The notes under the pieces: model-generated
The model's database searches: none
Seen by the model: the letters and a program-made list of their open reading frames with translations, nothing else
Told to the model about the DNA's origin: nothing
Program-made: the position numbers and the translations under genes
Part shown: positions 1,011 to 63,821 of the stretch, one piece after another
Numbering within the stretch: the stretch's first letter is position 1
Layout: every line of letters starts with the position of its first letter
Source of the DNA: Stegostoma tigrinum
Lineage: Eukaryota
Direction: 5' to 3'
Assembly: GCF_030684315.1 (NCBI RefSeq)
Contig: NC_081379.1
Span: 30,147,947 to 30,211,946 of the forward strand
DNA length: 64,000 nucleotides

Positions 1011-1103
1011 CCCAACCAGCGGCCTGGGAAAGACCCGGTTCCGTCCCTCCTGTCGATGTACGTAGCCGCGTTAAACATGAAAAAACGTATACATACATTT
1101 AAG

Positions 1104-1339
1104 AGATCGTACGAACTGCCGATGCTGGAGAATCTGAGAATAACAAGGTGTAGAGCTGTATGAACGCAGCAGGCCAAGCTGCATCAGAGGAGCAGGAAGC
1201 CTGACGTTTCGGGCCTGCAGCCTTCTTCTGAAAATCGGAAAAATTTCTGGAGAAGGGTCCAGACCCGAAACGTCAGCTTTCCTGCTCCTCTGATGCAGCT
1301 TGGCCTGCTGTGTTCATCCAGCTCTACACCTTGTTACCC
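1104..1339. mobile_element. Palindromic Penelope-like terminal mini-element
   Basis: Long inverted arms (ataacaaggtgtagagctg...cagctctacaccttgtta), two degenerate hammerhead motifs near the centre, exact 14-bp TSD TACATACATTTAAG (1090-1103, 1340-1353). Confidence 0.85.
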
Positions 1340-1432
1340 TACATACATTTAAGGTGACAATTTACTTAAGACCCACACTTAAAGGTAACCAGTTCTGTGG
1401 AAGGGTCACCAGACCTGAAATGTTAACTCTGA

Positions 1433-1633
1433 GATGATGGGAACTGCAGATGCTGGAGAATCTGAAATAACAAAGTGTGGAGCTGGATGAACACAGCAGG
1501 CCAAACAGCATCTTAGGAGCACAAAAGCTGACGTTTCGGGCCTAGACCCTTCTGATGAAGGGTCAGCTTTTGTGCTCCTAAGATGCTGCTTGGCCTGCTG
1601 TGTTCATCCAGCTCCACACTTCGTTATGTCAAA
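1433..1633. mobile_element. Palindromic Penelope-like mini-element nested in an older Penelope-end fragment (about 1393-1710)
   Basis: Inverted arms; 10-bp TSD TTAACTCTGA (1423-1432, 1634-1643); the host fragment resumes after the TSD. Confidence 0.8.
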
Positions 1634-3255: not shown

Positions 3256-3399
3256 TCAGTGTCCAGGAAGGGAGGGAGGGTCAGTACCCAGTGTCAGTTT
3301 GGGGAGGGTAAGTGGGGGATACAAGATGATCAGTATGGGGGAAGAGGTCTATACCTGACCACACTATGAAGGAGAGGAGGAACAGGGGGTGTGTGGTCT

Positions 3400-6498: not shown

Positions 6499-9400
6499 GT
6501 GGGTGGGGTGGGGTGGGGCGGGGCGGGTTTTGGGTGGGAGTAAGGGGGAGGTAAGTGGGGAAAGGGGGCGTACGGGTGGTTGGCTGAGAGGAGAGGGAGG
6601 GGTTTGGAGAAGGGAATCCATCCGGGAGGGGTTAGAGACACCCCATCCCACAGAGGGAGGGGTCAGAGACACCCCATCCCACAGAGGGAGGGGTTCAGTG
6701 CAGTAGGAGACGGGGATCAAACAGAAATAGGTGGTTTTGAGTCACACTGGGGTTGGTGGGGTCAAAGTGGGGAAGGTGAGAATGGGACGTGCCACAAACC
6801 AAGATCAATGAAATAAACCAGGGGATGTGGTCTCCAGGGCCTGGAAAAACCATGGCTACAGCAATAACTGGGGACCATCTGTTGATGGGTGATTTGGAAA
6901 CCGGGTGCTTGTCGAGTCATTAGTGTAACTCACTGGGGTTTGAAAAGGAACTGGAGGTCGTGGTTGTGCAGGGAAGAGACGTGGAGTTAATGGGCAGCAC
7001 AGTGGCTGAGAACTGCTGCCTCACAGTGTCAGGCACCTGGGTTTGATTCCACCCTTGGGCGATCATCTGTGTGGAGTTTGCACATTCTCCCTGAGTCGGC
7101 ATGGGTTTCCTCTCAGGTGCTTTGATTTCCCCCCACAGTCCAAAGCTTTGCAGGCTAGGTGGATTGACCACGTTAAGTTGCCCATAATGACCAGAGACGT
7201 GCAGGCAAGATGGATTAGCTATGGGAAATGGAGAGTGTAGGGCTAGTGTAGGAGGTGTGTCTCTGGGTGAAATGTTATTGGAATAGTCAGTGTGGACTTG
7301 ATGCACTGAGTGGTCTGTTTGCATACTGTAGGGTTTCTGTGGTAATGGAGATTGAGCATGGTGTAACCAAAGCACAGGCTTGGAAGGTGGGAGGGGACGG
7401 ATAATGGAAAATAAGACCCTACTAGGAAGGATTTACCAGGACCTGGGATGATTGGAAGGGGGAGCAGAGGCAGAGTAATCAGGGAGAGGTGTGTAAAGGA
7501 GGTTAAATGAGAGATGAGTAATGGGTAACAATCGGGGGATAAGAGACATGAAGCAAGTGACATGTTAACGGGAGTTGCCCCATGACCTGATGCTTGGGGA
7601 GGGTTACAGGTATTGCTGAGCTTGCCCTGATGACGCAATGCCCTGTTGACTCTAATTGTGTATGTTTAGATTTAAACTTTAAGCCAATTTGTAAATAATA
7701 AGATAATAACCCACATCTCTAAACAATAATAATAAAATGTGAGGCTGGATGAACACAGCAGGCCAAGCAGCATCTCAGGAGCACAAAAGCTGACGTTTCG
7801 GGCCTAGACCCTTCATCAGAGAGGGGGATGGGGGGAGGGAACTGGAATAAATAGGGAGAGAGGGGGAGGCGGACCGAAGATGGAGAGCAAAGAAGATAGG
7901 TGGAGAGGGTGTAGGTGGGGAGGTAGGGAGGGGATAGGTCAGTCCAGGGAAGACGGACAGGTCAAGGAGGTGGGATGAGGTTAGTAGGTAGCTGGGGGTG
8001 CGGCTGGGGGTGGGAGGAAGGGATGGGTGAGAGGAAGAACCGGTTAGGGAGGCAGAGACAGGTTGGAACTCTCTAAACAATAATACTTTGTCTTGTAATG
8101 AAAAACAACAACAAATATAATTTCTTCTCAAAGAACTTTACATTGTCAGCTTCAGTCATTTAGATGAATGCTAAACATTCCTGGTACTATTTGAAGATGG
8201 GCAATTCTTTTAGCAGACTGTTTTCTCTTCACTGTAATTAAAACATTGAATATATAATTGTTATTCTGAATGCCACTTCTCAGATGTTGCTGATGTAGAA
8301 TGGCTGTATGATTGCTGACACTACTTCAGAATTAATTTGCTGTGAAATACCTCAGATTTTGGCATCATGCGAGTATTGTTTTATTTTAAAAATGGCACTA
8401 ATATTTCACGGATAACAAGGTGTAGAGCTGGATGAACACAGCAAGCCAAGCAGCATTAGGAGCAGCAGGTCCTGCTCCTCTGTGGTGCTTGGTCTGCAGT
8501 GTTCATCCAGCTCTACACCTTGTTATCTCAGATTATCCAGCATCTGCAGTTCCCACTGTCACTAATATTTCACAGTTGAGTCAGAATTTACTGGAGAAGA
8601 AGTTGAAAGGAATGTGGTAGTTCCAATTGCCTTGCCAATTACTACATGAGATGAAGTAACATCACTTAAAGTATGATCAACAATTGCATTTAGAAAGTGC
8701 TGGTAGTGTAATAAAATGTCCGATGACACTTCACAAGCATTCATCAAACAAACTTTGCCGCTGATCCAAATAAGATTTGGATGGATGACGAGAAATGTTG
8801 TTAAATGGATGGGTTTTAAGGAGCATTGTAAAGGTGCAGAGAAATTGAATTTGGTTTAGAAGGGGAATTAGAAGGGCAACTCACAGCAAAGCCACCTGTG
8901 ATGAAACAATCAAAATTACAGGTGTAAAACTGCAGAATTGTTAAGTGGCTGTGGATTTGAAGGAGGTCACAGAGATAAGGTGAGGTGAGACAGTGAAGAG
9001 ATTTGGGGTATTGATTGATTTATTGTTGTCATATGTACCAAAATATACTGTAAAGTGTTGTGTTTTGTGCTCTGCAGTCAGATCGCACCATTCAAAGTGC
9101 ATCAGGGTAGCAGAATACAATATTACAGCCACAGAGAAGGTGCAGAGAGAGAGAACATAATTAACATTTGAGGGGTCATATCAAACGTCTGACAACAGCA
9201 GAGAAGTTATTCTTGAATCTATTCATACGTGCATTCAAACTTCTATGTCTTCCCGACAAAGGAGGTTGGAAAAGAGCATAACCAGGATGGGAGGGGTCGT
9301 TGATTATGTTGATTGCTTTCTCAAAGCAGTGGGAAGTAGTAGATGGATAGAAGGCTGGTTTGTGTCATGGACTTGGCTATGTTCACTACTGCAGTTTCTT

Positions 9401-12400: not shown

Positions 12401-15400
12401 ACAGACCCTTCAGTCCAACTCCTCCATGCTGACCCGATATCCTTAAATTAATCTAGTCCCATTTTCCAGCATTTGGCCTATGTCCTTCTAAACGCTTCCT
12501 ATCCATATACCCATTCAGATATCTTTTAAATTTTGTAATTGTACCAGGCTCCACCACTTCCTTTGGTAGCTCATTCCATTCAGACTCTCTGTGTTAAAAA
12601 GTTGCCCCTTAGGTCCCTTTGAAATCTTTCCCCTCTCACGTTACATCTATGCTGGCCCCACCCCAGGGAATAGATCTTATCTATTTGCCTTGTCCATACC
12701 CCTCATGATTTTATAAACCTCTACAAGGTCACCCCTCAGCCTCTGATTCTCAGGGAAAATATCCCCAGCCTAATCAGCCGCTCCCTGTAGCTCAAACCGT
12801 CCGACCTGGCAAGGTCCTTCTAAACCTTTTCTGAACCCTTTCAAATTTCTCACCATCCTTCCTATAGTAGGGAGGCCAGAATTGCAAGCAGTATTCCAAC
12901 AGTGGCCTAACCGATGTCCTGTATAGCTGAAACGTGACCTCCCAACTCCTATACTCATTGCACTGACCAGTAAAGGCAAACACACTGAACGCCTTCTTCA
13001 CTATCCTATCTACCTGCGATTTCACTTTCAAGGAGCCGTGAACCTGCACTGCAAAGTCTGTTTGTTCAACAGTGCTCCCCAGGACCTTACCATAAGTGTG
13101 TAAGTCCTGTGCTGATTTGCCTTTCCAAAATGCAGCACCTCACATTTATCTAAATTCAACTCCACTTAATTAGTTCGGTGTAAATACCAACTTAAAAAGA
13201 AATCGCCAAATATTTTTCTGAAAGATTGCTGTGACTATAATTTTGCATAGCGATTCGATGAATATCTGTTCTGATACTAAATTGTTTTTGATTTTCTTTT
13301 CAGTTTTACGTCCTAATTAATTTCCAACATTTGTATCCTTTGTAGCTGGTCCTACCTTGAACTTACCACAAATGGATCATACAAAGACAATTTACAGGCT
13401 TATGCTGCTGGAGTGCTGGAGGCTTCTGTCACACATCAGGTAAATTTAACTTGTCATTCTGCTAATTGTTATATTATTAATGTTATATTAATAAGATCCA
13501 CATTCTCAGGAGATGAGCAAGAAATGTAAGAAAAAAGCATATTTGTGTGCCATAGGTTTTATTTCTAGTTAACAAAACTAAATTTTAATGATCAATGAGA
13601 CTTATTGTTAGGTCTGTGAATTTGAAACAGCAGAATTGATTTTTGCTTAAGGAGTTCATGGTTCACAGTAGAGGTATATCTCAGTGAGAAAGAAGGATTC
13701 TAGGAAGGAGATAAGCTGAGATAGTAGGAACTGCAGATGCAGGAAAATCTGAGATTTCTAAAGAAGGGTCTAGACCTGAAACGTCAGCCTTCCTGCTTCT
13801 CTGATGCTGCTTGGCCTGCTGTGTTCAGCCAGCTCTACACCTTGTTATCTCAGGTGATAAGCTGACCATGGTTTACTGGATAAGTTAAGGATAGCATCAA
13901 ATTGAAAGTTTGAAAAAATATGATGTGGCAAAATTACTGGTAAACTAGAGGATTGAGAAAATCGAGAAAGTCAGCAAAAGATGACCAAAAATAATAGACA
14001 AAGATGATAAACTTTGAAAGTAAACTTGCAAATAATATCAAAATAGTCAGGAAGAGCTTATTTAAATATATAAAAAGAAAGAAAGATGCCAAAGTGAACA
14101 CAAGCCCCTTAGAGAATGAGGCTCTGAACATAGTAATGGGGAATTAGGAAATGGCAGAGGAGTTGAATAAATATTTTGTATCACTCATCACAGTATAAGA
14201 CACTAACAGTGTTCAAAAAATACTAAATACTCAAGTGGCTAAAGGAGGAGAGTAAATGAATACAATAATATCACTAGAAAAAAATTGTACATGGAAAGCT
14301 AATGATACTAAAGACCAATAAATTCCCTGGACCTAATGGGATATAACCTGTGACATAAAAGTAAAGCACAGCAACATGTTTCAAATTCCTTGCTGCAGTG
14401 AGCTGTGGGGGCAGAGTCCCATTTTAAATTTAAAGCTGAGATAGAATCTAGATCAGTAGAGAAATTGAGTTATATGGGGAAAGGGCTGGAAAGTGGATGT
14501 GAGGAATGTTGGATCAGTCATGATCCTGTTGAATGGAGCCTCAGTGGACTGATGGCCTACTCCGGGCCTTGTGTAAAAACAAAGCACTTAGAAACTGATA
14601 ATATGTTGAAGCTGTGTCAGCATTGCTTCACAAAGGGTGGGAGGGTCCAGGACCAGAGGGTGTAATCTCAGAATAAGTGATTGTGTATTTAAGAAACAAA
14701 GAGGAAGAATTTATTCTCTGTGGCTAGTGAATCCATGGTATTCTTTACCACAGAGGGCTTTTGAGGCTGGATTGTTAAGTATATTCAAGGATGATTGTAG
14801 GTTTTTAATCTGTAAGGATTATGGGGAAAAAACAGGAAAGTGGATTTGAGGATTATCAGATTAGCCATGATTTATTGAATGCCAGAACAGACTTCATGGG
14901 CTCAATGGCCTATTCCTTCTCCTTTATTTTCTGGGTTATGTGATCTTATTTTCAGCCATTGAGAATGCTGAAGAAGGCTTTTAATTTCACTTTGCAGTTT
15001 GTTTTAAATCATAAGACATATTTTGAATTGAGCATTTTTGTAATATTTTCATTTTTCTGCTTTTGAAAGCCGAATGGATGTTTAGTGTGTCAAAAGCCTT
15101 CTTCATCCCATATGGAAGAAAATCAAATAATTTGTCGAAAATCTAGTAAGCAGCTGTATTTAAATCATGTCCTTTTTCTTTCCAATCTTCCTTCCTCCAC
15201 ACCTCATCTCACCTTGCTGATAACTTTATTACAGTAAGATTCCACAAGCAGCACAACCCTTGTACTTTGCCCAAGTGGCCATTCTTTATGCACACTGATT
15301 TTTAGGTTATTTTATTATTGTTGTATCGGAACAAAGTCTGACTCTATCCTTAATCTGTTTACATGAATATTCTGTTAGAATAATTGACAATAATCAATTA

Positions 15401-18400: not shown

Positions 18401-21400
18401 CCTCTGTCCTGTTTAATAATATCTTTCCTATAACAAGGCGACCAGAACTACACAAAACAAAGTTGCTGGAAAAGTTCAGCAGGTCTGGCAGCATCTGTGA
18501 AGGAAAAAAACTGAGTTAACGTTTTGGGTTTGGTGACCCTTCCTCAGAACTGATGGTGGCTGGGGAAACATCCAGTTTATATGCAGAAAATAGGGAGGCA
18601 AGTGGGGTAGGTAGTACACGATAGGATAGAGCCCAAAGAGAGAGAAAGACAGTTGGACAGACAAAGGAGTTGTTAACGATCAGGCTGGGAGGTGAATAGT
18701 TGTTAACGGGACGTGTTAGTGACTAACAACAGGGAGTGTGTAATGGCAGCCTATGTGGTAACAGTGCCTGGTGTGTGGGTTAGGGAGCTGGGACATGGGA
18801 GAGTTCAGGCTCTAAAATTATTGAGCTCCATACTGAGTCACAGGGTTGTAGGGGAAAATGAGGTGTTGTTCCTTCAGCTTACGTTGGGCTTCGCTGGAGT
18901 ACTGCAGCAAGCAGAACTGTACCTGGTACTCCAGAACAGACCTCACCAAACTCCTGTACAACCTTAACATCACATCCCAACTCCTATAGTCAGTGGTCTG
19001 AGCAATGAAGGCAAGCATGCTAAATACCTTCTTTAACCACCCTGTCTAACTGTGATGCAAATTTCACAGAATTATATGTCTGAACCCTTGGATCTTTTTG
19101 TTCTACAACACTACCCAGAGCCCTACCATTAATTGTATAAGTCCTGTTTTATTTGTTTTACCAAAATGCAATACCTTGCATTTAGCCAAGTTAAACTCCA
19201 TCTGCCACTCCAACGCCCTTTGATCCAATTCAGTCAGATCTCTATTGTAATCTTAGATGACCTTCTTCCCTGTCCACTGTATCGCCAATTTTGGTGTCAT
19301 CCACAAACCTATGAACCATGCTTCCTATATTCTCATCCAAATCATTTATATAAGTGACAAACAAAAGTGGACCCAGTACCGATCCTGTAGAACACCTCAG
19401 ATACAATGTAAGGATAAGGGAACCCTTCATATTTCTGCAAGGAGTAGGGCTGAAAACTCTGGTCTGGGAAAAGTAATGTCCCTGGCTGGTGAAAACCAAA
19501 AATTTATCACAAGGATTGGTGTGGAAGATGGCATGGTCCAAAACAAGAATGGAATATCCTTGAAGGAAGCAGGGTGAGAGGAAGTTACATGGTAGCTGTG
19601 GACGTTGATGAGATCCCAATTCAACAGCCAGTGCTGGTAATGATTCTATTGCCATTTACAGCTGTTTGTTTCTTTTCTCTTTCCAATACCTCATTACCAC
19701 CTCTATTGCTCCTTTCCATCATCCTTTTTGTCATTTTGTTACTGTTGCCTCTCCCCATCACATCCATTCCCCTCTCTTTCCCATATTTTGGTGTCTGTAT
19801 TTACTTAAAACTGTTTTGTTAATTTTTTCACTGGGCTTTTTTAGCTACATCTACAGTTTTTGCCCATCCTGTTGCAATCTAATTTTTTCCCATTCTCACG
19901 AAAAGTCAATGACATGAAATATTGTCTTAATCTCCATAGGCATTAGACCATAAGACATAGGAGCTGAAATTAGGCCATATGGCCTATTGAGTCTGCTCCG
20001 CCATTCAATCATGGCTGATGAGTTTCTCAACCTCATTGTCCAGCTCTCTCCCCGTAACCCTTGATCCTCATTGCCTTGCCTGCTGAATGCTTTCACAATT
20101 TTTTAAAAAACTTTTGAATATTTACTAAATGATTTTGTTTTACTCCTCAAAACTCACCTCCAAGTGGCAAGTATTCCAAGATATCTGCTGGACAAAAAGA
20201 TAATCTGTTGTATTGTGCTATGGGTGAACACAGGATTTAAACTGAGCTATCAGGTTACACCTGCAAGAAATTTCAGCAAATAATGAGTATTAGTTATGCC
20301 ACCAACTTTCAAAATTTGAGTTTATTAACAAACGCTTGCTTTCATGATGAACATTCACAACTGCAAAAGACCAAAAAACTGTCAAAATTAGATAAAACAT
20401 TTTGACCCTATATTTAAAGTTTTGGCAAAGATCTGTAGCTTTGGTTGTGGATGAGGTTGTTGACTTCCTCACCAAGCTCGGTGAGCAAGTCAATAACCTC
20501 ATTTTGGACCTATTTTATGAAAGAGTTAAACAATTTAACTTTTATTGAGTACTCTTGAATATTCTTTCATTGCAGGTAGAAGTTAGGTGACACTGTTTAA
20601 AAGTTAAGTACTGTCCTTGGAGCTTAGCAGCCATAACTATACTTGGAATAATATGGGTGTTCTTAGCTAGAGAGCCCTTGCCTGCCTTCACGTAGTTGCA
20701 ACAAAATTGGAACTAATCAGGAAGTCAAACATGTGAAACTGGCACTTATTGCATTCTCTGAAATGTAGCCATGCTTTTAAGAAACAAATTTGTCAGCTAA
20801 CGTCAAATACTCGCATAGTGGACCTGGGATAAATGAATGTATATTTGAGACCTGCCTGAGCATTGACGACAGTGAAGAACCTATTTGCAGCTGTGTAAAA
20901 TGCAAAAACGAGTTTTGGCTCTACTCAATTTTTGCAAATTGGGACAGGTTAAAATTTTTGCAAGACGTATGACACCCCAAAGATCTTGATTATTGATCTC
21001 TTCTCCCCACTTATCTCCACCTCCCACAACACTTTTCTATTTCTAACATATGTTGAACACCTGCAGAGAAGTTGATTGCTTTTGAGTTTGTCTTTTGAGT
21101 GATGAGTTTGTGGGAGATGGAAATACCAAAACAGGAAATATCTTCAAGGGATTCAAGGAGAAATTATTTTCAAGGTGAGGTTAAAGAAGACTAAGAATGT
21201 ATCGGAAAGACGTTCAATATGAATATCTATATTTTAAATATATCAGGTGAATTTGGTACTACTACAGCTGCGAGGGCTAGAGGACAGCTATAACAATCAT
21301 ATTTCATTTCCTAATGGGAAGTTCAACTTCCGACCTTTTGGATTCATGTAAGTGGTTTATCTTGTTTTGTAGCACAGATTACATTCCACATTTAAGAGGA

Positions 21401-24400
21401 AATATAATTTTATTGAAATATACATTGATGTGTGCTTCCATTACTCACTCATATACCAAATAAATGAATGTTTCTTACAGTTGAAATAAATATTGCCGTT
21501 TCAACATACTTCAAGCCTGAGTTTGAGAGATTTTTATTAGATAATGGTGTCAAGGGATACGTATCAAAAACATAAATGCTGTTGAGGTACATGATCTAGT
21601 TGAACAGCAGAATAAACTGGTTAGCTCCTGTTACTGGACTTCATACACCTGACATATGAATTTTTAAAATTCTTTCTGTTCACATTTTCTGTTGCTGTCT
21701 TGTATCTCTTCTTGTATAAGACCAACTGTCTGAGGCTGCACAGCCCAGGTTTCTTCAATCATTTCTGCATACTTATACCTACCAAACTTGGAGACAACCT
21801 CATGGCTCTTAATTGCACTCCCTCCCATGCTAGAGTGTTCCCCAACTCCCTTCTGTTTATAAGATAACAAAGTGTGAAGCTGGATGAACACAGCAGGCCA
21901 AACAGCATAACTTTTGTGCTCCTGAGATGCTGCTTGGCCTGCTGTGTTCATCCAGCTTCATACTTTGTTATCTTGGATTCTCCAGCATCTGCAGTTCCCA
22001 TTATCCCTTCTGTTTATGTTTAGATACTGTATTCAAGTTTGACCACTGCTTCCTGTGACTTGTATTCTACAATTTTGGTCACATAGTTCAAGATGCTATT
22101 GCCATTGATTTTTTGCAGTGCATTGGTTGGACATGAGTGCTGAACTATTTCTCAACTAGCTAAAACACCATTCATGTTTCATTCAGTCATGTATATTATT
22201 TTCCATTGTGAAGAAGACCACATTTGTCTGCTTTAAATGATCTGTAATTGTTCTTTTCAAACCATTCTGTAATTTCTATGGGTGCATCTCTGCTTCACTA
22301 ATGTGGTTGTAACCACATCTGAATGTCAGTCATTTAATAATTCAGAAACAGTGGTGATCTTGGGAAACACAACTGATTCTTCTAACAAGTCAAAAAGGTG
22401 TAACCAATTTTATCATTTTAATATTGGGATGGAGTTGATTTTGATTTTGGTTACGGTGCTTGTTTGTCTGTGGTTCATTTTGATGTATGAAGTTACTGGG
22501 TGCTGTTAGCTTATGAAGTACTTTATATGGTTTGCCCCATGTTTTAACTTTATTCAACCCAAAACAGCTTTGTAGAAGAAAGTAACCTGTAAATTTGATG
22601 AAACTGGTGATTAAAAAGTATACTATGCTAGCTTTGTCACATGCTGTTGTCATGCTCAGAACCATGGTGTAATAAAATTCTGTTTACTTAATAAACTACA
22701 TTTCAGTCTTTTGCAGATGGCTGGTGACTTGGAGGATCTTGAAAATGTATTTAATAAAACCGATTCTTCAAAGGCTTTTGGTTCTGGGTCATGTTCTGCC
22801 CTCATCAAACTGTTGCCAGGCAACAGAGATCTTCTAGTAGCCCATGACACTTGGACTAACTATCAGTCAATGCTGCGAATCATTAAGAAATACAAACTGT
22901 CCTTTAAAGATGTCCCAGAAGGTATGTGTGCATAATTGTCTTTTTGTAAATTTATTCAACTACTGCAGGAAATCTCCCTAAACCTTAAAGCTTAAAGTAC
23001 CCAAACTAGCAGAAATCAAATAATTAATTCCAGAACACAATGTTTAATCTGGTTTAGGTTTGGATTGAAAAATGTGACTGAGAATTATCAGAGGTATCTC
23101 AGAGTAAGGGATTTATAGAATACTGTTATATGACAGTCGTGGCCGAACAGTAAAACAATGCAAATCTGCTTACATTGTAAACTGTTTTTATACTTTTGAT
23201 GCATTTCACAAGAACACAGATGTCAAGCTACTATTGCAAGGTATGCTTTTATATGGTCCCCTGTTCCAAATGTGAAAGATGGGACAGAACCTCAAGTATG
23301 AGTATGACTATGAACCCAGACTATAGAATGCATACGTCAACTTGCCCCCATAAGACTATTGTTGGAGGCAGTCACTTCTCTACTTCTGTGGAGGCTATCA
23401 ACTAGATAGCAAGCTAGATATCCCATTGTGGGCTTTTCCCAACAAACAGAAGGTATAAGTGGCAGATAACAAGGTGTAGAGCTGGATGAACACAGCAGGC
23501 CAAGCAGCATCAGAAGAGCAGGAAAGCGGACGTTTCAGGCCTAGACCCTCAGAAAGGTCTAGGCCCGAAATGCTAGCTTTCCTGCTCCTCTGCTGTTGCT
23601 TGGCCTGCTGTGTTCATCCTGCTCTACACTTTATTATCTCAGATTCTCCAGCATCTGCAGTTCCTACTACCGTGTAAATGGTATTCCTGTTTGCAAATGT
23701 TCTATGCTCCAGCATGCAATTCGTGCACAAAAAAAATTAAGAAGGTACCATTGATAAATGCATCAATCCTTAAATATGAATGTTAATGTAGGAATGCTTA
23801 AAATCTCTAAAATTATGTATATTTGCTCATTGGCGTATTTGTAAACGGGGATTTTGCAATCCAGTTAGGAACTGTCTAACGTTTAAAGAAAAATCCAAGC
23901 TACTCATTAAAGCCATTTGAATTTTGCCACAAGATTTCACTTGATAATTAATAAATAAGCTTTATATGAAAGGATTAAATAGAACAAACATTATTAACAG
24001 AACAATATTTTCAAAGTGATATATGTTGTGCAGTCAGGTTCACATCTTTCTCACCCCAATAATTCTCTAATTAGACATATCAACCTGAAAGTTTTGACTT
24101 CTGTAGGGACCACCTATAAATATGCTGCAGTGCTCTTGAGGATTTTCCTTGGCTCTGGCTGTTTTGAGAGGTAAAACTTTGGACTATGGATACCTGTGTC
24201 CCTTGCAATAACTCCAAAACATTCTGCTAATTGCTTTCATTGACACAAAACCCTGTAGGAACTACTAGTTTCGAATGTCAGGTTTCTTGTCCTTCTCAAA
24301 ATTCAAACTGCACTTAAGTCTCACCCACATTCCAAGTTGTGACTGAAGACATTACATTTTTGCGCTACTTACTGTGAACACTACTGTGATTTGCCTTGGC

Positions 24401-38184: not shown

Positions 38185-38215
<31 letters not shown>

Positions 38216-42986: not shown

Positions 42987-43861
42987 AATCCAGTTTAAAG
43001 TCAGTTGTTAAAGTACCGTGACATTGGAGACGTGTTGCACCTTCCTGTGACTTGTCCACCCATATGATTGATTAGTTGTCTGCTGGTTGTGTACCCAACA
43101 AAAACTTTGCAACTGCAACCAAATTGCTGTTAACCTAATTGGAACATTACTTAAACTTCAGCTTTTTTAAACTGTTTCTTAAATTCTATATAACTGGTGC
43201 TAATACATAAATTTGTTCATTACTTTTGAATACAAAGTTGCTGATTTATTCTTGAGTACAAAGCATGTTACGATGTTTAAAGTCAGTGAAATTGGATTTG
43301 TGCATCAAAACTGAGTGACCTGATTTGACATGAGAAAATATTAATATGTCTTTGCCAGGCCCTTCCCTTGAGCAAGTCTGTACCTTGCAAATGGTCTCCA
43401 AGTTATCTATCAATTTGGGTGGAGTCTACGAATTACTCTGCAAATCACACGGAGAAATGATGTAAACCTTAAGCTTTCTCAAGAGCAAGAGGTTGCAATT
43501 AGAGCGTGTTTATCTCATACACCCAGTTCTCATTATAACTCTGGACATGGGAATTTAACTTGGAGCTCCACACAGAAATATATTTGTACCATGTATCCAG
43601 TATAATCCTATGTTACACACTTGTATTATTCCTTCACTGGTACTGCTCAACCACATGTGGAATTTCAACATTTGGTCATCTAGCAATTGCCAATATGAAT
43701 CAAAAAGCAAAATGCTGCTGTTGCTGGAAAGCTGAAACAAAAACAAAACATGCTAGGAAATAGTCAGTTAATCAGGCAGAATTTGTGGAGAGAGAAAGTA
43801 TTAACATTTCAGGCTGATTAACTTTTCGCCATTCTGATGAAAGGTTGAGATATAATGATTT

Positions 43862-46090
43862 GTGTCTTAAGGTTCTTGCAAAGATTTGTAGCTCAGGTTG
43901 TGGATGAAGTTGTTAACTGGTTATCATATAGAAGTATCATCACAATGCTAGGTAACAGTGCAGCCTCCAATGAAGCAATGTTGTTCTACTTTGCTTGGTA
44001 TTTATATGATCTGGTCTATCGAGTTATGTTGTGTCGTTTCCGGTTCTGTTCTGCATGGATTTGTATATAGGGTCTAATTCTACATGTTTGTTGATTGCAT
44101 TAGGGGTTGAAAGCCAGGCCTCGAGAAATTCTGTGGTTGGCATGAGCTAAGATGGTCGTGTTGCCCTAGTTAAATTGATGGTCTTCATTATCCAAGTTAA
44201 CTGAAAGGATGGAAGTTGTGTCATTTTTGCTGCTAGCTGGTGTTCATGTATCCTTCTGATAGTGTTTGTTGCAGTCATTGCAAGGTATTTTGTAAACAAC
44301 ATTGTTACTGCATGTCATTGGTTTTGGGTCTTTGTTCCTTGTGTGTGTTGGTCATAGCGTGTCTGTGGGTTCGTGTGCTACCATGATTCCTAGTGGTTGT
44401 AGGAGTCACGTCAGTTCTGATATGTTCTTGATACAGGGTGGTGTGGCCAGTGCATTGGGCCATACAGTGTCCTTTTGGCATTGTTTATCGAGTAGGCACC
44501 TGCGGATGTAGTTATTGGGATATCTGTCATTAGCACGTACCTTATATAGGTGCTCTTTCTCCATCCTGTGTAGTTCTGGCATGTTGCAGTGAGTGTGGCC
44601 TGTTTGAATAGTATCCTAACACAGCTTTGTTTGTGGATGTTGGGGTGATTGCTGTGGAAATTGAGGATTTGTTCAGTGTGGGTTGCCTTCCTACAGACTG
44701 TAGCTTGGAACTCCCCGTGGGTCATGCGTTCTACCCAACAAAAACAAACATATCACCCTACCAACCTCTGCATCCAGCATATCACTCTCTGCTACTTCTG
44801 CCATCTAGAATCTGACCCAACAGCCAAAGAGATATTTCTCTCCCCACCCCTACCTGCCTTTCGTAGGGACTTCTCTCTCCGTGACTCCCTCATCTGCTCC
44901 ACACTCCCCACAAACCCCATCACACCCGGAACCTTTCCTTGCAATTGCGGGAAGTGCTACACCTGCCCCTATACCTCCCCCTCACCTCCATTCAAGGCAC
45001 AATACAAACTTTCCATATTAGACAGGGTTCAACTGCACATCTGTCAACTTGGTCTACTGTATCTGCTGCTCCCGATGTGGCCTCCTCTACATTGGTGAGA
45101 CAAAGCGTAGACTTGAAGACCGTTCCGTGGAGCATGTCTGCTCTGTTTGCGACAACCAACACCTTCTGGTCGCCAACTATTTTAACCCCCCTCCCACTCC
45201 CTGAGTAACATGTCCATCTTGGGCCTTCTCCAGTGTCACAATAACACGAGGAGCAACACTTCATATTCCGCCTCAGGAGACTACAGCCTGATCACAAAAA
45301 CATGGAATTCACCAGTTTTTGAAATCTCCCCACCCCCGGCCTCATCTCATCCCAAACCCTCCCTCTCATCCCCGTCTCCTTGACCTGTCACAACTGGTCC
45401 ATCTTCTCTCCCACCTATCTGCCCCATCCATCCCACTGACCAATCCCCATCATTTGTTACCTGCACTCACCTACCACCATCCACCCCCCTTCCCCAGCCC
45501 TCCTCTCTATTTACTTCTGTGCTCTCTTCCCCCTCCCTGTTTCTGACAAAGGATCCTGATCTGAATTGTCAACTTGCCTGCTCGTCTGATGCTGCCTGGC
45601 CTGCTGTGTTCCTCCAGCTCTACACTATGTTGTCTCTGACTCCAGCATCTGCAGCTCTTGCTATCTCTGAGTTGATTTTTCTGTTCCTCATCTCTCATAA
45701 ATCTGATCCCAGTGAAAATGTTGATGATGAGTTGGTGTGTCTCTTCTAAATTGGTGCCTTTAATGATGACAAATGTGTCGTCCACATATCGGATCCACAG
45801 TTTTGGCTGTATGAGGGGGAAGAGTAGAGTGTTCCAGTCTTTGCTTGACTGCTGCTGCAATATGCCCCAAGATTGGTGACCTTATAGGTGTGCCATTGAT
45901 TTGTATATTTGGCCATTAAAGATGAAGTGTGTAGTGAGACATAGGTCCAGTAGTCTAGTACGTCGTCCTTGCTGATGGAGCTGTTTGGAGTCGGCGCTTC
46001 TGCTGCATCCAGTAATGTGGCAAGTGTTTCTATGTCAATGGATGAGAATAGTGCTGTGACGTCAAAAGAGACCATAATCTTATCGTTTTT
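43862..46090 (-). mobile_element. Poseidon-like Penelope retroelement (RT and GIY-YIG remnants), split by a second Penelope
   Basis: MVSFDVTALF and WIRYVDDTF (45669-46090); VERMTHGEF..RKATHT..LNFHSNHP and NVVYKIPCNDCNKHY (43862-44734). Confidence 0.88.
44735..45668 (+). mobile_element. Neptune-like Penelope retroelement 3' part
   Basis: TYHP...AFRRDFSLRDSL...GTFPCNCGKCYTC linker and NLVYCICCSRCGLLYIGETKRRL GIY-YIG; terminal repeat 45540-45668 is the mini-element family sequence. Confidence 0.88.
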
Positions 46091-47621
46091 TTTATTTGAG
46101 GTCCAGCAAGCTCAATGATTTGTGTCTAATTCACTGTACTTCCAGAAAAATCGACTTGAAGTTCTGCTCTTCTCTCCAACAGAATTTCCATTTGTCAATT
46201 GTACTCTGTTCTCCTTCACTGCTTTCTAGTTTCTTTCTCATGTCTGAGCCACCCCCATCAGATGCTTTCCTTTTGTCATTGACCCACCCACCCCCGTGCT
46301 CAAAATCTACTATATCAGTATTTATTTCAGCCAACCACGTAGTTTGAAACTGAGTCAATTTAGCCTAAACTGGGTAGGGGTGGTATTCCCTTTTCCAGAA
46401 AGACTTGGGAACCGGTCGGGTCCCTGTGACAAGCTGATGGTTTATTTCACACCAGTTCACAAATTTACTGAGTTAGCACATTCATTTGTACAAATTGCCA
46501 TTGGTGACATTTAACTCTTGGGCTGCAAAGTACTAATTAGAAGACATCACACTGAACTTGAATCATTTAAATTCAGATTTTTTAAAAAATGAAGTTCTTT
46601 TGAGTACAAGCCAATACCTGGTTTCAGTCCTGAAGATTATGTTGTTGGAGCTTCTTCACCAAGCTGTTGTGATTGAGGGGTGTGTACGGTTACAATGTGT
46701 TATTCACACACTGCTCTTCACAGCGGTTTCTTGCTAGTGGTCAACAATAAGAGCCCAAAGGATTACTTTCTACTGGCCTTGCTCATTGTCACGATAATTT
46801 TACTCATGGTCATATCCACCGACCTACTATTAATTTGTTAATTTGCTGTCATTGTTCTGACTGGGTCGATGTCAGACTGACCACTGCACAGTCACTGAGT
46901 TTTGGGAAGGTGTGGCTCTGCCCCTGAAAATAATTTGCATTGCACCAATGAAATATCGTAAAATGTAAAGAATGCAAACCAATATCTACCTCCTATGTCT
47001 CTTTGAGAGAGCAGATAGAGGCTCGGTTAGGTGTTGCTAATACATTGTTAGTTGTTTTAGTACACTCTCCAAGGATTTTGTTGTGGTATTTTCTACTGGT
47101 TGAAATTCAGTTACCTGTAAAATGTTAAAAATATTCAGCTTTGACTATGGGGAGAGCTGGTGTCCTACATCATGTTCAGTCAGAGCAGATTAAAGATGCT
47201 GACAGCAGCTCTCTTCTTCAAAGTGACTTTGTTTTTCCAGGGATGTTTGTGATTTGCTATTATCTTGCTGCCTGTCTTGATCAATAGACTAGTTATAATT
47301 TACTGTTGAGGTAGTACTGCAAGCCATTTAATTGACTAAACTTTTTAAGGTGATCAAGGAGTTTTTTTTTAGTTAGAATTACTAAGCTGTCAAAAGTGAT
47401 TTCAAGTTGAACTTGACCATAGACCTCTTTATTTTTAGCACTTTATTTTAATTCCGAATATACAGAGCAGATCCTGCAATCACTGCATCTGAAATGTTAA
47501 CCTCATTGGTCTTTAGGCTGATTTCTCTGCTGATGTCGCTTTGCTATCCATGTAATTTTAAGAATATATATTGAGCACAGTTGTCCAGAATCTAGCCCCA
47601 ATAACATTCCAGAAAGAATGT

Positions 47622-53064: not shown

Positions 53065-53245
53065 TGAAACAAAAAGCAGAAGTTGCTGGGACAGCTCAGC
53101 AGGTCTAGCTGAATCTGTGAAGAGAAATCAGAGTCAATGCTTCGGGTCCAGTGTAAGGAAGGGTTTTTCTTCACAGATGCTGCCAGATGTGCTGAGCTTT
53201 ATCAGCAACTTCTGTTTTTGTCTCTGATTTACAGCATGCACTGTC
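53065..53245. mobile_element. Palindromic Penelope-like mini-element (older subfamily)
   Basis: aaaaagcagaagttgctg...cagcaacttctgttttt inverted arms, centre deleted. Confidence 0.7.
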
Positions 53246-53632
53246 CTTTCATTTTTTTTATTGAAGATTAGGTGGTTAGACTTGTGATGATTGACTATGT
53301 GAATCTTATTATTTATACTGAGGAAGCGATCGTAGAGTTTACCGAAAAAATTTTTAAAATGGGATTCTTTTGAATCTGTAGCAGAAGATGTAAGTTTAAA
53401 TGTAGCAACTTCACCTACAGTATGATGATAAGGAGCAGTGTGTCCAGGAATACTGTAGAAAATAGAAACAAATTGGAGTAAGAGCCAGCCTTTTGAATAA
53501 AGAAACAGTATTGGGATCATTGTATTTTAAAGATAAAAATATTGTTAATGGCTGAATGGGTTTTCTACGTATTTTCTTGAGTTACACATAAATAGAATTA
53601 GAGATTCTCTAATTAGAAAATTAGAGATTAGA

Positions 53633-54440: not shown

Positions 54441-54569
54441 GTCAAGAGCCCATTGTATATTTCAAATATGTTCTTTGATGTTTAAGCGAAGAATAAAGTA
54501 CTGATATGGATTTGTAAACCGACGAGCTTGTATGTAATCCCAGGACCAAACAATCAAGTAAAAATAAAG

Positions 54570-55862
54570 AATTGTGGGTGCTGGAAATGAGAAACAAAAG
54601 CAAACCAGAAATTGCTAGGAATGCTCAGCAAGGCTGGAAGCATCTCTGGAGAGAAATCAGAGTTAACGTTTCAGGTCCAGTGTCCCTTCTTCAGAATTGA
54701 TGGTAGCTTGGAAAAGGTTGATATTTATGCAGAAGATGGGGCGAGGACTAGTGAACAGACAATCAAATGTCTGTTGGAGATGGTGGGAAATGCAATTGCT
54801 GGAGAAAGAGGTAACACAGTGTGGAGTTGGAAGAATACAGCAGGCTAGGCAGCACCAGAGGAGCAAAAAAGTTGATGCTTCAGGTCAGGACCTTTCTTCA
54901 GAAATGGGGAGGGGTAGGGAGCTAAGAAATAGAGGAGGGGTGGGGTGAAGGTAGTTGGGATGGTGACAGGTGAGTGCAGGTAGGCAGTAGTGGGGATTGA
55001 TCAGTGAGGTGGGAGGAGTGGGCAGGTGAGAGGGAAGATGGACAGATTGTGTCAGATCAAAGAAGTGGGGATTGGACATGCGATGAGGCTGGGGGTGGGG
55101 AACTTTAGAAACTGGTAAAATCCACATTTAGGCCATTGGGCTGTAGGCTCCCAAGGCAAAATATGAGGTGCTGTTTCTCCAGTTTGCAAATAGTGTCATT
55201 GAGACATTAGAGGAGGCCCAGGATGGACATGTCACCCAGGGACTGGGAACGGGAGTGGGAGTTAAAATGCTTGGCAACCGGAAGTTGTTGTCATTTGTCA
55301 CGAACAGAGCGCAGATACTCTACAAAATGATGTCCGAGTCGGCGCTTAGTCTCACTGATGTAGAGGAGGCCACATCGGGAGCAGCAGATGCAGTGGACAA
55401 AGTTGACGGATGTGTAGGTGAGCCCCTGTCTAATGTGGAAAGTTTGCATTGTGCCTTGGATGGAGGTGTAGGGGCAGGTGTAGCACTTCCTGTGGTTGCA
55501 GGAAAAGGTGCTGGGAATGGTGGGGCTAGTGGAGAGTCACGGAGAGAGGCAGATAGGGGCGGGGAGGGAAATATCTCTTTGGTTGTGGAGCCAAGGATTG
55601 TAGGTGGTGGAAGTGGTGGAGAATAATACTTTGTATGCGGAGTTTGATGGGATGATATGTGAGGACAAGGGTGATTCTGTCTTTATTTCAGTTGGGGGGG
55701 AATTTGAGGGCTGAAGTGCAGGAAGCGCAAGAGATGCAGTTGAGGGCATTTTCGATCAATGGACGGGGGAAGTAACAATCTTTGAAATAGGAAGACATCT
55801 GGGATGTGCAGGAGTGGAACGCCTCATCCTGTGACCTGGTGGAGGCAGAGGAACTGGGAGTT
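54570..55862 (-). mobile_element. Neptune-like Penelope 3' part (about 54777-55862) next to another Penelope-end fragment (54570-54776)
   Basis: Minus strand CICCSRCGLLYISETKRRL; hammerhead-like ctgaagaagggacactggacctgaaacgtt at 54694-54665. Confidence 0.82.
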
Positions 55863-56079
55863 GTTTGGAGATTCACACTTTTTTTCCGATAGAGTAACTT
55901 ATTTTTTCCCAGTTATAGGAAAACATATAAATTCAAGCAGGATTAACATTTCTAACACTCGCTGAAACATTCATGTACACACATTGACACCAGTGCGGTG
56001 CTAGTAAATGTTATTCCACTTGCTGACACATTATCATGAAAGGGGATGTCCCTGCCCCATGGAGGCAGGCCTGAAGGGA

Positions 56080-59300: not shown

Positions 59301-62300
59301 GTTGCATAGCCAACACAGTAAGGGGGGACAGACCAGACCCACCAAGTCACCGATGCTGAAGCCATTGCTCAAGATGTCGCCACTTCAGTCTGAAGCAGCC
59401 ACTTTGCTACCATAGCTACGAGGAAAGGACCACACCAACCGACAATGAAGCCTTTGGAAAAGCTGCAGCCACTGTGGCCACAAGGAATGGACATCTGGAT
59501 CAACCATGCTGCTGCCGCCACAGCAGGCCCTTGCAACCACCTTCCTCTGCAGCCACAGAAAAGGTGAACTTTAAAGAATGCAAGTGTCAGGTGAGGGGGA
59601 GCATACAAGCACAGAGCCCAAACCCTTCCTACCCTGCTCCTGCTGCTTCCACCTCCACTAACATTGAATAAAGAAGTATCACTATGTGTAACCTTGATGA
59701 CACAGCTGGAATACAATGTGCAATTTTACTATCCTTACTTAAGAGAAAAAAGGTCTTGCAACTCAATACATAGCATCACTGCCTCTGAGTAAGATGCTCC
59801 TGGTTGCAGTTCCACTTTAGAACTCATTGGACAAGTAAGTTGTGTTCATAAAGAAGCTGTATCAATTTGTGAATTCTTACAATGTGAGGGAGAGATTCCT
59901 GGTCAGCCATGTGATGGAAAGAATGTGGAACCTCCTCCATCACTATCCACAGCTCCAGGTTGCAGCGTGTGTGTAAATGCTAATCGCTAGATGATCATGC
60001 TTTCTCATCAGTAATGGGAGGAGGTGTCAGTTTGTTCTTTTGAGAAGTCTGTGGTTCTGCACTTTAAAGGGAGCAGGGTTTTAAATTCTGAGATTAGAAG
60101 CATATGATTGGTTCTAGAGATGGGTGTGAGATGATGTTTGGCTGTTTGAGGAGAGAATGTGTCTTTTAAATGTAAGTTTTGAATTATTTGAATAATGTGT
60201 TTATGTTTCTATATTTGTAGGTGGCCCACACTGATGAAATACTACAGTACTACAGGAAGTCATAACTGGTGGGAAGAATACCGAACACGGCATTCTATTG
60301 GTAGACAAGTGCAAGCAATGGTGGACACCTTTTCAAAGCGATTCTTTTCAAAAGAGGTTAGAATTGTAACAATAATTGAAAATGTTATTGCTTTTACACT
60401 GTAGGTTCTTGAACTTCTTGTTCATACCTTATGCCTGGTTCCCATTCTCAACTAATGAAAAAGAAAAGCTTTTCACTACCTTATCTGAATCCTGCACAGC
60501 TTTCTTGCTTCTTCTCTCAATCTCCTTAGAAATAAATTGGATTATTCTTGAACATAGTGTCATTCCCAGAGTCAAAATGCTATTGAGAAATCTACAGTTG
60601 ATGGTCGCTGCCATTCCTGAGCTGGCATGTTTGCTGATATTCTGTTGAACCTATGAAAAGTCATTGTTCTGAAATGTTAACTCTGTTTCTCTGCCCAACT
60701 TGCTGAGTGTTTATAGCATTTTCTGTTGGTATTTCAAGTGCCCAGCTTCTGCAATTTTGCTTTTAGTTTTTGGAAAGTTTTTTCTCAATACAGCTCTTTC
60801 TTCATAATTAATGTTGAAAATTTCTAAATCCCTGGAATAACTGTTTTACACAAAATATGTATAATCTCTGATGAATTCTTAAATATTCATTAATATCCTG
60901 ATAGGTATCAGTCAATTCCTTGTTGTTTTGATACCTCCCAGTAATTTTAATTTCATTGTGTTTGTTTCCTAATTACAACAGAAAGCTTTTCCACAAGGCC
61001 GAAACATTCCCATCATTTATTAAGTTGCTTTTATAAAACTCTTGTCTGCTGCATTATGATGACTCCTTTAAGTGTAATCAAATTTAGATTGCGAGACACT
61101 TACTAAATGTGTACAAAACTGAATCAGCATAATCATATATTTGCATTAGAGCATAATCTACTGCTTTGCTCCGCCTAGTGTTGAGACCACCTTGAAATAT
61201 AAATAGATTGCTTTTAGACAAAAGTGTCCTGGTTATTTACACTCAAAAGTATTTTTTGATATAAATGAGTGACAGTATTTATCTGGAAGAAACCCTTGGA
61301 ACTTAAACGTGCTTGTGTGCATTCTTCCTGCTTGTGCCGCCAGTAACTAGATCTTTTGTACTGTAGTCTTTTATTGTGCTCCATGCAATTATTGAACTGA
61401 ATTAATTGCCTAATGACTTTGCATTTACTTCGCATAAACATTGAACACTTCAAAAATATGTGATTGCCAGTAGATGGCGCACATGTGACATTGGTCATAA
61501 CACGGATATTTATCGACAGGTTCCTGTTGATGGCTTTAAAGACGTTGAAGCTCTAGGTGGTCCATTCTGTTTTATTGAAGATGAACTGTTGTCAATTCTA
61601 AATATGGATGGAAGGTGAGTGATTGATGTATCTATGAAAATCAGGAAAACATGAATGGAGCTACTTAATCAAACTAAGTTAATTAATTGCAGTTTTTTAA
61701 ATTGGAAAAATAGTGAGGCAGATATTGAATAATTGGAGAGATTCTTTTGCTTCAGGAAGCATCTGACATGGAAATATTATTCTCGCAAAATCCTGTGTTA
61801 TCTTCGTCAGAGGGACATCATGGAAAAGTTGAAGGAGTTTCTCTTAACTCTTCCAGAACACCAAGAATTAATAGAAGGTAAGGGAAGTAATTAAACACTT
61901 CTCTTTTTTTTCCCAGTGCGTATAATTAGTGAGATAGTGTCAGTAACGATGTGCCTTGTCAGGTAACAGTATTCTCAGCAGAAAGTATAACTTTATTATT
62001 TTTACTTCATTAACTATTAGCCAAACTGATAGAGATTATTAAAATGTGCAACCAGTTGAAAAAGATTGATAATTGTCATGTGAATGTGACTGTTATCACT
62101 TTTTTAAATACATTTTTAGTGATGATGATTCAAGTGGGAAATCTGTTTTAGATTCTCATCCGGTGCCACTCTTGCAATCCTTGGGATGGCTCAAGATTAA
62201 CCAAAGATTACTCCACTTCTTTGCTGTGTTATTCTTTCACTTGAATAAGTTTGGAGAAATTGCCATGTGGAAATCATGGGTGAGAATCTGTTTCCTTCCA

Positions 62301-63821
62301 ATGTGTTACACATGGAATTTAATGTGCCAGAACCCTGCCCTGTCATATTCAAAGAGTCAGTGTGGAGTTGATGGCCAAATGACCCGTTTCCACCTTGTCG
62401 GGATCTTATGATTCTGATTACCCCCTGAATTTGGACAGGATTCTGTACTTACTAAGAAACAGTTCAGTACAATGAAGAATATGTAATTAGGTTTGCAAAC
62501 ATAAAGTCTGATTTACTTTTCTTGCCAGGTGTTGTGCTGATAGATCAATACTGCAACCCCTTAGCAGACAACTCCCTGGAGAATATCCTATTACAGCTGA
62601 ATTACATTACAGATGAAGTGAAAAAAGCATTGCGTTTAACACACTCTTATCATCCAAGTATCACGGCAAGAAAAGGTAAATAGTTTTATCCATGCAGCTT
62701 GATTTTTCAATAGATCAGCATTATGTTTTTAGTTACGTATTACAGCAAGAAATCATATTTGTTTGGCTACTTTGGGTCCAAACATAGTCTTCAAGAAAAT
62801 AATGAAATTCAATGCCAGCAATACAAAAGCCTACTAATTTACAGTTGCAGGCCTATTTTCAAATCCTAATCTTGTTTGATATCGGAACTTGTGATTTCCC
62901 AGAGTGTTTCTGTTGAAATAACCAGGGCCAAACTTTACACATTAACAAAAACTGCACACTGCTAAGAATTGATGACACACTGTGGAGCTGGAGGAGCACA
63001 GCCGTCCAGGCAGCATCAGAGGAACAGGGAAGTTGACATTTCAAGTTGGAACCCTTCTTCAGAAATGGGGAAGAAGGGTTCCCACCTGAAATGCCGACTT
63101 TCCTGCTCCTCTGACACTGCCTGGCCTGCTGTTCTCCTCCAGCTCCACTCTGTGTTATCTCTGACTCCAGCAATTGCAGTTCTTATTATCTCTACTTGCT
63201 CTTGATGCTTCTTGTTGATGTGCCACAGAGAATCTTAATAGAGAACAAAGTTTAAGTCGAGTCATTCAAATGTTAATATTTTTGTCATTTTTCGGGTGGG
63301 GTATTATTTTGGATTTTGAAATGTAGGTTTTCTTCTTTGAAATTGCTAGCATGTTGATATCCTTGTCCTTTTAAGTAAATGTGTATTTGAAATATAATTT
63401 TAAAAATATAAAATGCGAATATTCTGCATAATTGTAACACAATGTATTTCTTTTGTAATGCATGTTTCAGATGACGTGTTTATTGATGGTCTAGAACTAC
63501 AACAACAGGTTCTGGATGCTATGAACCATGTATTATACAAGCAATTCAAATTTAAAGGAAATGAAGAAGATTATTACAACCCCATGAATTCCTATATACA
63601 TCAGGTATGTAAGTTTAAAGATAGTGCTCAGATAGTTATGATGTACAAATATAAAAGCTGCTTTTTTGTGTTGTTTGTATATAGGTGCTTAGCCAAAAGA
63701 AAGGAATTCCTATCACACTGTGTGTGATATATTCAACCATAGGCAAGAGTCTGGGTGTTCGACTGGAGCCGGTCAGCTTTCCAAATCACTTTCTCTTAAG
63801 ATGGTGCCAAAAGCCTGCAGG
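56154..63821 (+). CDS. FBXO21: F-box only protein 21, coding exons 1-7 (3' part outside window)
   Basis: join(56154-56341,60221-60356,61520-61614,61756-61877,62529-62675,63471-63604,63685-63821), open, GT-AG, phases consistent. F-box LPEEVLEQI; RWP.LMK, LTWKYY, IDQYCNPL, QVLDAMN.VLY, FP.HFLLRWCQ match vertebrate FBXO21. Confidence 0.96.
60221..60356 (+). CDS. FBXO21: FBXO21 exon 2
   Basis: WPTLMKYY...NWWEEYRTR...FSKRFFSKE. Confidence 0.94.
61520..61614 (+). CDS. FBXO21: FBXO21 exon 3
   Basis: VPVDGFKDVEALGGPFCFIEDELLSILNMDGR. Confidence 0.94.
61756..61877 (+). CDS. FBXO21: FBXO21 exon 4
   Basis: KHLTWKYYSRKILCYLRQ...ELIE. Confidence 0.94.
62529..62675 (+). CDS. FBXO21: FBXO21 exon 5
   Basis: VVLIDQYCNPLAD...HPSITARK. 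Confidence 0.94.
62970..63192. mobile_element. Palindromic Penelope-like mini-element in FBXO21 intron 5
   Basis: tggagctggaggagcacagc...gctgttctcctccagctcca inverted arms, two degenerate hammerhead motifs, 3' tail; TSD not clear. Confidence 0.78.
63471..63604 (+). CDS. FBXO21: FBXO21 exon 6
   Basis: DVFIDGLELQQQVLDAMNHVLYKQFKFKGNEEDYYNPMNSYIHQ. Confidence 0.95.
63685..63821 (+). CDS. FBXO21: FBXO21 exon 7
   Basis: VLSQKKGIPITLCVIY...LEPVSFPNHFLLRWCQKPAG; follows an 80-bp intron. Confidence 0.95.

Follow-up and report, generated by a model that had tools for sequence, protein, structure and literature searches.

Short head-to-head inserts in the Stegostoma tigrinum genome as probable by-products of Penelope-like element integration

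Background

Insertions of Penelope-like elements (PLEs) coding for a GIY-YIG endonuclease (EN+ PLEs) typically carry an inverted, 5'-truncated copy, a tail and a target-site duplication (TSD), as described in the legend to Fig. 2 of PMC8557442 and in passages of PMC3846280 and PMC2377424. The origin of the inverted repeats and of the tail, and the role of the hammerhead ribozyme, are named as open questions in PMC8557442. Here we examine a 64,000-nucleotide stretch of the Stegostoma tigrinum genome (assembly GCF_030684315.1, contig NC_081379.1, positions 30,147,947 to 30,211,946; hereafter the window), in which nine short inserts consist of little more than PLE terminal repeats. These inserts are very probably independent by-products of PLE integration, with no family of their own.

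Three further described systems bear comparison. The Poseidon element PAc of an anole encodes a protein, modelled as a dimer, that nicks and extends both target strands in vitro; reverse transcription starts at two sites whose spacing equals the tail, RNA shortened at its 5' end gives shorter products, and hammerhead cleavage is not required (PMC11167929). The same study detected no RNA reads with an end at the hammerhead cleavage site. In Schistosoma mansoni, pairs of minimal hammerheads on opposite strands, about 100-700 bp apart, have been attributed to truncated PLEs (PMC4209133). Non-long-terminal-repeat retrozymes are portrayed in passages of PMC7229834 and 10.64898/2026.07.22.740005 as head-to-tail tandem repeats that are processed to circular RNA.

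Results and discussion

Anatomy of the inserts

Palindromes were detected by self-BLAST, and further inverted repeats by an inverted-repeat scan. An initial annotation of the window had listed nine inserts, each said to be made of two inverted copies of a Penelope terminal repeat. Self-BLAST bears this out for eight of them; the insert at 13720 is not a palindrome. The Penelope origin stands, as the arms correspond to the 3' terminal repeat of GIY-YIG-encoding fragments in the window, and nine inserts in 64 kb agree with the proposed density of about one per 7 kb. All true palindromes are head-to-head, with their 3' ends facing outward. Set against the published insertion architecture (an inverted 5'-truncated copy, a tail at one end and a variable TSD), eight of nine are inverted, eight of nine have a single tail, so that the extra tail on one arm is indeed usual, and six have a significant TSD. 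The inserts, named by their listed start positions and assigned to subfamilies A to C or family D as described below, are as follows.

1104..1339, palindrome, subfamily A, tail left; TSD 1090-1103/1340-1353, 14 exact; each arm extends to just upstream of the hammerhead core
1433..1633, palindrome, subfamily B, tail left; TSD 1423-1432/1634-1643, 10 exact; 16 nt of the hammerhead missing from the right arm
8410..8559, palindrome, subfamily A, tail right; TSD 8396-8409/8560-8573, 14 exact; without ribozyme
13720..13851, non-palindrome, subfamily A, inverted tail followed by a sense arm without tail; TSD 13706-13719/13852-13865, 14 bp with 1 mismatch
21861..22003, palindrome, subfamily B, tail right; TSD 21847-21860/22004-22017, 14 exact; without ribozyme
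23465..23671, palindrome, subfamily A, tail right; TSD candidate within chance
32435..32639, palindrome, subfamily C, tail right; TSD 32422-32434/32640-32652, 13 bp with 1 mismatch; left outer end shorter (+52)
53066..53255 (listed as 53065), older palindrome, family D; most of the hammerhead missing from the right arm; TSD uncertain
62940..63195 (listed as 62970), palindrome, subfamily C, tail right and an apparent decayed one left; TSD not found

The 1433 palindrome sits in an older family-D terminal repeat (1385-1715), just 3' of the hammerhead motif of that repeat and about 90 bp from the 1104 palindrome. Two palindromes folded against shuffled sequences gave z values near -18, with none of 200 shuffles equally stable. 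The predicted folding energy was -35.7 kcal/mol for 13720, compared with -85 to -166 kcal/mol for the other eight inserts.

As a null for the TSD scores, 150 random site pairs were taken, and one of them reached at least 10. Six inserts (1104, 1433, 8410, 13720, 21861 and 32435) scored 10-14. Seven TSDs of 10-15 bp had been reported; six are significant, the candidates at 23465 and 53065 fall within the null range and 62970 has none, while the three exact 14-mers (1104, 8410 and 21861) are confirmed. The view that the inserts entered as single TSD-flanked units holds. The eight flanking repeats of the six inserts and of two single-arm copies are 70% A+T, compared with 59% for the window.

Arm ends, junctions and arm relationships

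Counting from the first base 3' of the predicted hammerhead cut, the tail ends at +96 to +103 in all eight tailed arms, and tail-less arms end at +65 to +69 in six of seven cases, 32435 being the exception (the left arm of 62970 was omitted as apparently tailed). The inner ends of the 15 arms of subfamilies A to C, with the tail stub excluded, lie at -13 to -39 in 11 arms and at 0 to +18 in four. Arm ends thus form two groups, one just upstream of the hammerhead and one at its cleavage site or slightly beyond; they had been described as near-constant, and clustered is the more accurate term. Both arms of 8410 end about 5 nt 3' of the cleavage site and the insert therefore lacks the ribozyme, and the right arm of 21861 starts at the predicted cut (position 0 by one alignment, +3 with one mismatch by another). 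Two palindromes have a right arm that is missing the helix II/GAAA part directly after GAAGGG (1552-1570 and 53155-53165). A splice acceptor at the 5' edge of the hammerhead, as occurs in D. virilis, was considered as the cause of the arm ends and rejected, since the ends spread over about 17 nt and not one site.

Central junctions differ in all nine inserts, and also within subfamilies (A, 4/4; B, 2/2; C, 2/2): 62970 has a 2-nt overlap, and 21861 and 32435 have short gaps. A self-propagating family would share one inherited internal structure, whereas these nine copies have nine unique junctions. Both arms belong to the same subfamily in each of the seven A-C palindromes, and no alignment column separates tailed from tail-less arms (0 of 59, 0 of 47 and 0 of 72), whereas one column in B and three in C separate the copies of these two-copy subfamilies. 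Variants present in exactly two rows fell within one copy in four of 18 cases (P=0.008), and in four of eight when only same-subfamily pairs were counted (P=0.022). These comparisons favour the copying of both arms from one template lineage per event, which does not prove a single RNA molecule.

The 13720 insert is informative in another way. From 13720 to about 13755 it consists of the inverted tail and 5 further nt, with almost no overlap with the tail-less arm; the two pieces share only those 5 nt, and therefore neither was copied from the other. This is the shape expected from twin priming on one RNA.

Source elements and single-arm copies

Diagnostic columns place 1104, 8410, 13720 and 23465 in subfamily A; 1433, 21861 and a single-arm copy at 7732 in B; and 32435 and 62970 in C, together with both long GIY-YIG copies. 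The three subfamilies differ by 20-25%. The more distant family D comprises 53065 and single arms at 54558, 18453 and about 1390. The copies outside the nine inserts are listed here.

44735..45672, + strand, Neptune-type PLE, 5'-truncated and frameshifted; CX4CX2C linker, GIY-YIG, subfamily C, tailed, without TSD
54782..55864, - strand, Neptune-type PLE, 5'-truncated and disrupted; subfamily C, tailed; 8-bp flanking repeat in the chance range
7732..8069, - strand, single-arm copy, subfamily B, tail-less, 5'-truncated, 338 bp; TSD 7716-7731/8070-8085, 16-bp exact; strict minimal hammerhead core
54558..54752, - strand, single tailed arm, family D, 195 bp; strict hammerhead core; 14-bp flanking repeat with 2 mismatches, in the chance range
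18453..18910, - strand, longer single-arm copy, family D, about 460 bp

Single-arm copies are longer than the insert arms, at 195, 338, about 460, about 935 and 1083 bp. The copy at 7732-8069 ends, beside its 16-bp TSD, near the same internal position as the tail-less arms; this position therefore behaves as a priming site. A profile search also located older, decayed terminal repeats of family D at 43700-43850, 58864-58970 and 60654-60759.

The claim that the shared repeat terminates the GIY-YIG fragments is confirmed at 44735-45672 and 54782-55864. Their proposed role as the helper family is not: the two copies are 5'-truncated, carry stops and frameshifts, group with subfamily C only (71% identical to one another) and match just two of the nine inserts, and dead copies that match two of nine are therefore not helpers. 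No long intact PLE open reading frame (ORF) was found in the window. The GIY-YIG match of one fragment (E 6e-4) lies under the curated cut-off, and a search with an 81-residue piece found 578 relatives at E up to 0.001. Six relatives of 813-924 residues, from 150 listed, align to both fragments and match RVT_1 in five cases and GIY-YIG in all six. The order that defines an EN+ PLE, reverse transcriptase (RT) followed by C-terminal GIY-YIG in one ORF, is thus seen through full-length relatives, while the window copies lack the RT core. A search with the endonuclease fragment gave 11 matches, the sole named one being a stingray protein at 61% identity, which points to a cartilaginous-fish origin. 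In a passage of PMC8557442, Neptune is defined by a CX2-5CxxC linker and two cysteines in the GIY-YIG core. Both motifs are present in both fragments and the linker in all six relatives, so that by motif definition the source elements are Neptune-type; the linker also occurs in Nematis. A relationship to MER6 or V-SINE was considered and dropped once the arms had been tied to GIY-YIG elements.

The copy at 44735-45672 lies inside the RT region of another PLE, a decayed element on the minus strand (43860-46110) with the RT motif YVDD and an endonuclease-like end. That insertion has no TSD and apparently a short target deletion.

The hammerhead

A minimal hammerhead was defined by CUGANGA, a bulged base, helix II and a GAAAC/GUH core. 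The anchored descriptor, from which pair counts were also taken, permitted one substitution per box. In the source repeat seven fuzzy matches had a helix II of 3 bp or longer, whereas 20 shuffles gave 0-2. Two lone arms, at 7819 and 54694, are the sole carriers of the strict core, which none of the nine inserts has. To describe the inserts as hammerhead-bearing is an overstatement: three (1104, 13720 and 62970) keep a near-complete core, 8410 and 21861 have none, and in the remaining four the hammerhead is broken by the junction, small deletions or decay. Minimal PLE hammerheads are described with a helix I of 4-5 bp; here it has 2-3 bp in A-C arms and 4 bp in two of three family-D copies, and D. 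virilis likewise has 2 bp. The second pair of helix I (compared at 1247, 7819, 13758, 63062 and 18547) is U-A, U-G or C-G according to subfamily, a variation which suggests that pairing is maintained although short in A-C.

Whichever strand is transcribed, the antisense arm comes first; five of the A-C palindromes extend into the ribozyme, and these are predicted to fold as one long stem at -135 to -166 kcal/mol. With the ribozyme buried in this predicted hairpin, ribozyme processing of a palindrome transcript is therefore unlikely. Rfam at gathering thresholds gave no match across the window, and when 7700-8600 was scanned by E-value no hammerhead family came up; the only matches were to microRNA and small nucleolar RNA models, below threshold and reflecting the hairpin. 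Among them, 8410 matches a microRNA model at E 1e-6, far under the gathering score; such inserts could be misannotated as microRNA hairpins, or as miniature inverted-repeat transposable elements (MITEs).

A second family of inserts

Two further structures, absent from the initial annotation, belong to a second family, P.

20415..20499, palindrome, family P, 85 bp; tailed arm of about 64 nt and tail-less arm of about 27 nt, AGCT junction, without hammerhead
39733..40390, head-to-head insert, family P, 658 bp; TSD 11-bp exact; inverted tail-less arm of about 203 nt and tailed sense arm of about 456 nt

The flanking repeat of the shorter insert (17 bp, 3 mismatches) is not significant alone, and the sense arm of the longer extends into endonuclease-like coding sequence. 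Both are related to the element interrupted at 44735. With the head-to-head, one-tailed structure present at 85 and 658 bp in family P, these inserts form a size continuum that spans more than one PLE family. Three family-P pieces had no relevant Pfam match and one Atlas search was blank; another Atlas search gave an RVT_1 cluster at 0.90, with 19% of members. These searches confirm family P weakly; it looks like a Poseidon-like PLE by motifs recognised by eye (YVDD, a two-cysteine GIY-YIG start and no linker finger).

Mechanism and alternatives

The initial annotation had left two options, a stereotyped abortive integration product or a non-autonomous family. The anatomy, the TSDs and the family-P size continuum can be read directly from the window, as can the unique junctions and subfamily-matched arms, which support the first. 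As to mechanism, we consider two-strand priming moderately probable. The GIY-YIG endonuclease would nick both target strands 10-16 bp apart, yielding the TSD, and both target 3' ends would prime reverse transcription on element RNA, with usual start sites at the tail end (about +98 from the predicted cut) and at an internal position (about +66). Each cDNA would halt after 50-140 nt, and the two would be end-joined at little or no microhomology, giving the order TSD, antisense arm, sense arm, TSD, with one arm tailed. A tail-primed cDNA halting at the second primer would yield a 13720-type insert, and single-strand priming a single-arm copy, such as 7732-8069 where only the internal site was used. 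The clustering of arm ends is probably due to RNA 5' ends near the hammerhead, at which cDNAs stall or from which they run off; behind the halt may lie such a 5' end, stalling or an annealing hotspot. We infer that both cDNAs were primed on one RNA and end-joined, as we do the cause of the halt.

A more specific version is possible but doubtful: the inserts would be 'double strong-stop' fossils, formed when a PLE dimer starts cDNA synthesis from both target strands within the 5' pseudo-long-terminal-repeat/ORF-start region of one RNA and the cDNAs run off its 5' end. If so, each junction would record an RNA end, about 25-40 nt upstream of the cut for uncleaved RNA and at the cut for cleaved RNA (21861 exactly, 8410 nearly). 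Thousands of such junctions in one genome would then testify to cleavage by PLE hammerheads in vivo and to the use of cleaved RNA as template, and one twin-priming mechanism would account for the inverted repeats and tails of PLEs.

Several points weigh against two-strand priming and independent origin as we read them. A significant TSD is absent from three of nine inserts (23465, 53065 and 62970), and 62970 in addition seems to be tailed on both arms (its apparent decayed left tail scores 29, against a null 99th percentile of 25 and a maximum of 33 in 2000). The initial annotation had proposed that unique junctions, together with arms that are always each other's closest relatives, would mark independent truncation products; the junctions and the lack of arm-type columns agree, whereas the partner arm is the nearest neighbour for just four of 14 arms, and a tree of 18 arms resolves B and C but little else. 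Shared variants could also come from unsampled sub-subfamilies or post-insertion gene conversion. Overlapping arms would need strand displacement or two RNAs, and the in vitro system is a Poseidon element, whereas A-D are tied to Neptune-type fragments. The sample is small (nine inserts from one 64-kb window), split points for arm ends were placed by hand to within a few nucleotides, and automated junction calls could not be used for 1104, because of self-reference, or for the left part of 13720.

A fold-back or self-priming route, related to an idea in a passage of PMC3846280, would also leave the inserts independent: the tail-primed cDNA folds and is copied back to an internal site, forming the second arm. 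Variants shared between arms and matching arm ends within a copy would follow, the tailed arm is the longer in 21861 and 32435, a 4-nt palindrome marks the join in the 85-bp insert of family P, and palindromes at inverted junctions were reported by Arkhipova 2013. We nevertheless think this route unlikely, as it cannot yield 13720, the tail-less arm of 1433 is by eye about 6 nt longer than the tailed one, and a lone arm flanked by a TSD of its own shows the tail-less end too. Long palindromes are unstable, and the inserts might instead be remnants of once longer inverted insertions that later lost their centres. Near-centre internal deletions in 1433 and 53065, possibly also in 23465 and 32435, and the existence of the 658-bp form are in keeping with this, but why ends cluster from copy to copy (-13 to -39 in 11 of 15 arms) and how the 13720 insert arose are left unexplained, which makes it improbable.

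The second option of the initial annotation, a self-propagating, non-autonomous, hammerhead-processed retroelement family, fits the density of nine in 64 kb, the narrow size range and the TSDs; non-autonomous PLE derivatives do exist (retrozymes; non-autonomous Chlamys), and nine copies are compatible with many small families. Yet no junction is shared among copies of four subfamilies, no column is diagnostic of arm type, and the two arms of an insert always match the same subfamily. The ribozyme is buried in the long hairpin of the five A-C palindromes or lost, with no strict core and the hammerhead wholly missing in two. No partial palindromes with a ragged outer end were seen, and family P forms a like structure at 85 and 658 bp. 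We consider such a family very improbable. A class II MITE mobilised by a DNA transposase is largely refuted and merits almost no credence: the inserts are short, non-coding and TSD-flanked with inverted repeats, but in place of symmetric terminal inverted repeats and a fixed TSD they have a tail on one side and TSDs of variable length (10-16 bp), and their arms are the 3' end of elements encoding RT and GIY-YIG.

Other features of the window

Host exons on the plus strand match Phospholipase B (22615-22935) and Transglut_core2 (63404-63727), which we take to be PLBD2 and FBXO21, respectively. Several inserts probably lie in introns and would be transcribed as hairpins. A long interspersed nuclear element copy on the minus strand (36183-38947) has a 673-codon stop-free RT stretch with an endonuclease stretch upstream, both with domain matches. 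A G-rich low-complexity tract of 2.9 kb (about 3300-6200) lies upstream of a probable first exon near 6270, and a weak inverted repeat at 17609-17737 (arms 45 nt, 71%) lies within another repeat family. A 25-nt arm motif had no match among prokaryotic genome contigs.

Comparison with known systems

In L1 twin priming, two target 3' ends prime on one RNA, giving an inversion inside a TSD, and the shape of 13720 resembles this product. Unlike most window inserts, whose arms overlap, L1 products consist of segments that do not overlap and carry a poly(A) tail. The anole PAc system is alike in that both strands are nicked and extended, start sites define the tail and product length is set by the RNA 5' end, and unlike in belonging to a different clade; PMC11167929 does not show cDNAs joined into a palindrome. 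The Schistosoma mansoni pairs share the truncated-PLE context and two minimal hammerheads on opposite strands, although the main text of PMC4209133 gives no TSDs, tails or junctions, and in the window the cores lie nearer to each other, with frequent loss to the junction. Retrozymes, as described in the passages cited above, are likewise short, non-coding, hammerhead-related and PLE-derived; they have head-to-tail tandem units with a hammerhead in each, whereas each unit in the window stands alone in head-to-head orientation, and its ribozyme is either lost or buried.

We found no description of ORF-less, TSD-bounded PLE mini-palindromes in cartilaginous fish, nor of twin priming for PLEs; subscription papers, Repbase/Dfam and supplements lay outside the search and may hold either. 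At about one per 7 kb, TSD-bounded inserts would amount to a very large natural record of where priming and stopping occur, and their junctions make the open question of PLE integration testable genome-wide.

The closest match remains the standard PLE insertion as depicted in the sources cited at the outset, which has the same head-to-head repeat, a tail of about 30-40 bp usually at one end, a variable TSD and strong 5' truncation. There, the inverted repeats flank ORF-bearing or partial-tandem copies; here, the arms are 50-140 nt long and ORF-less, and this is the commonest form in the window. The inserts are thus the shortest, miniature form of the published PLE insertion pattern.

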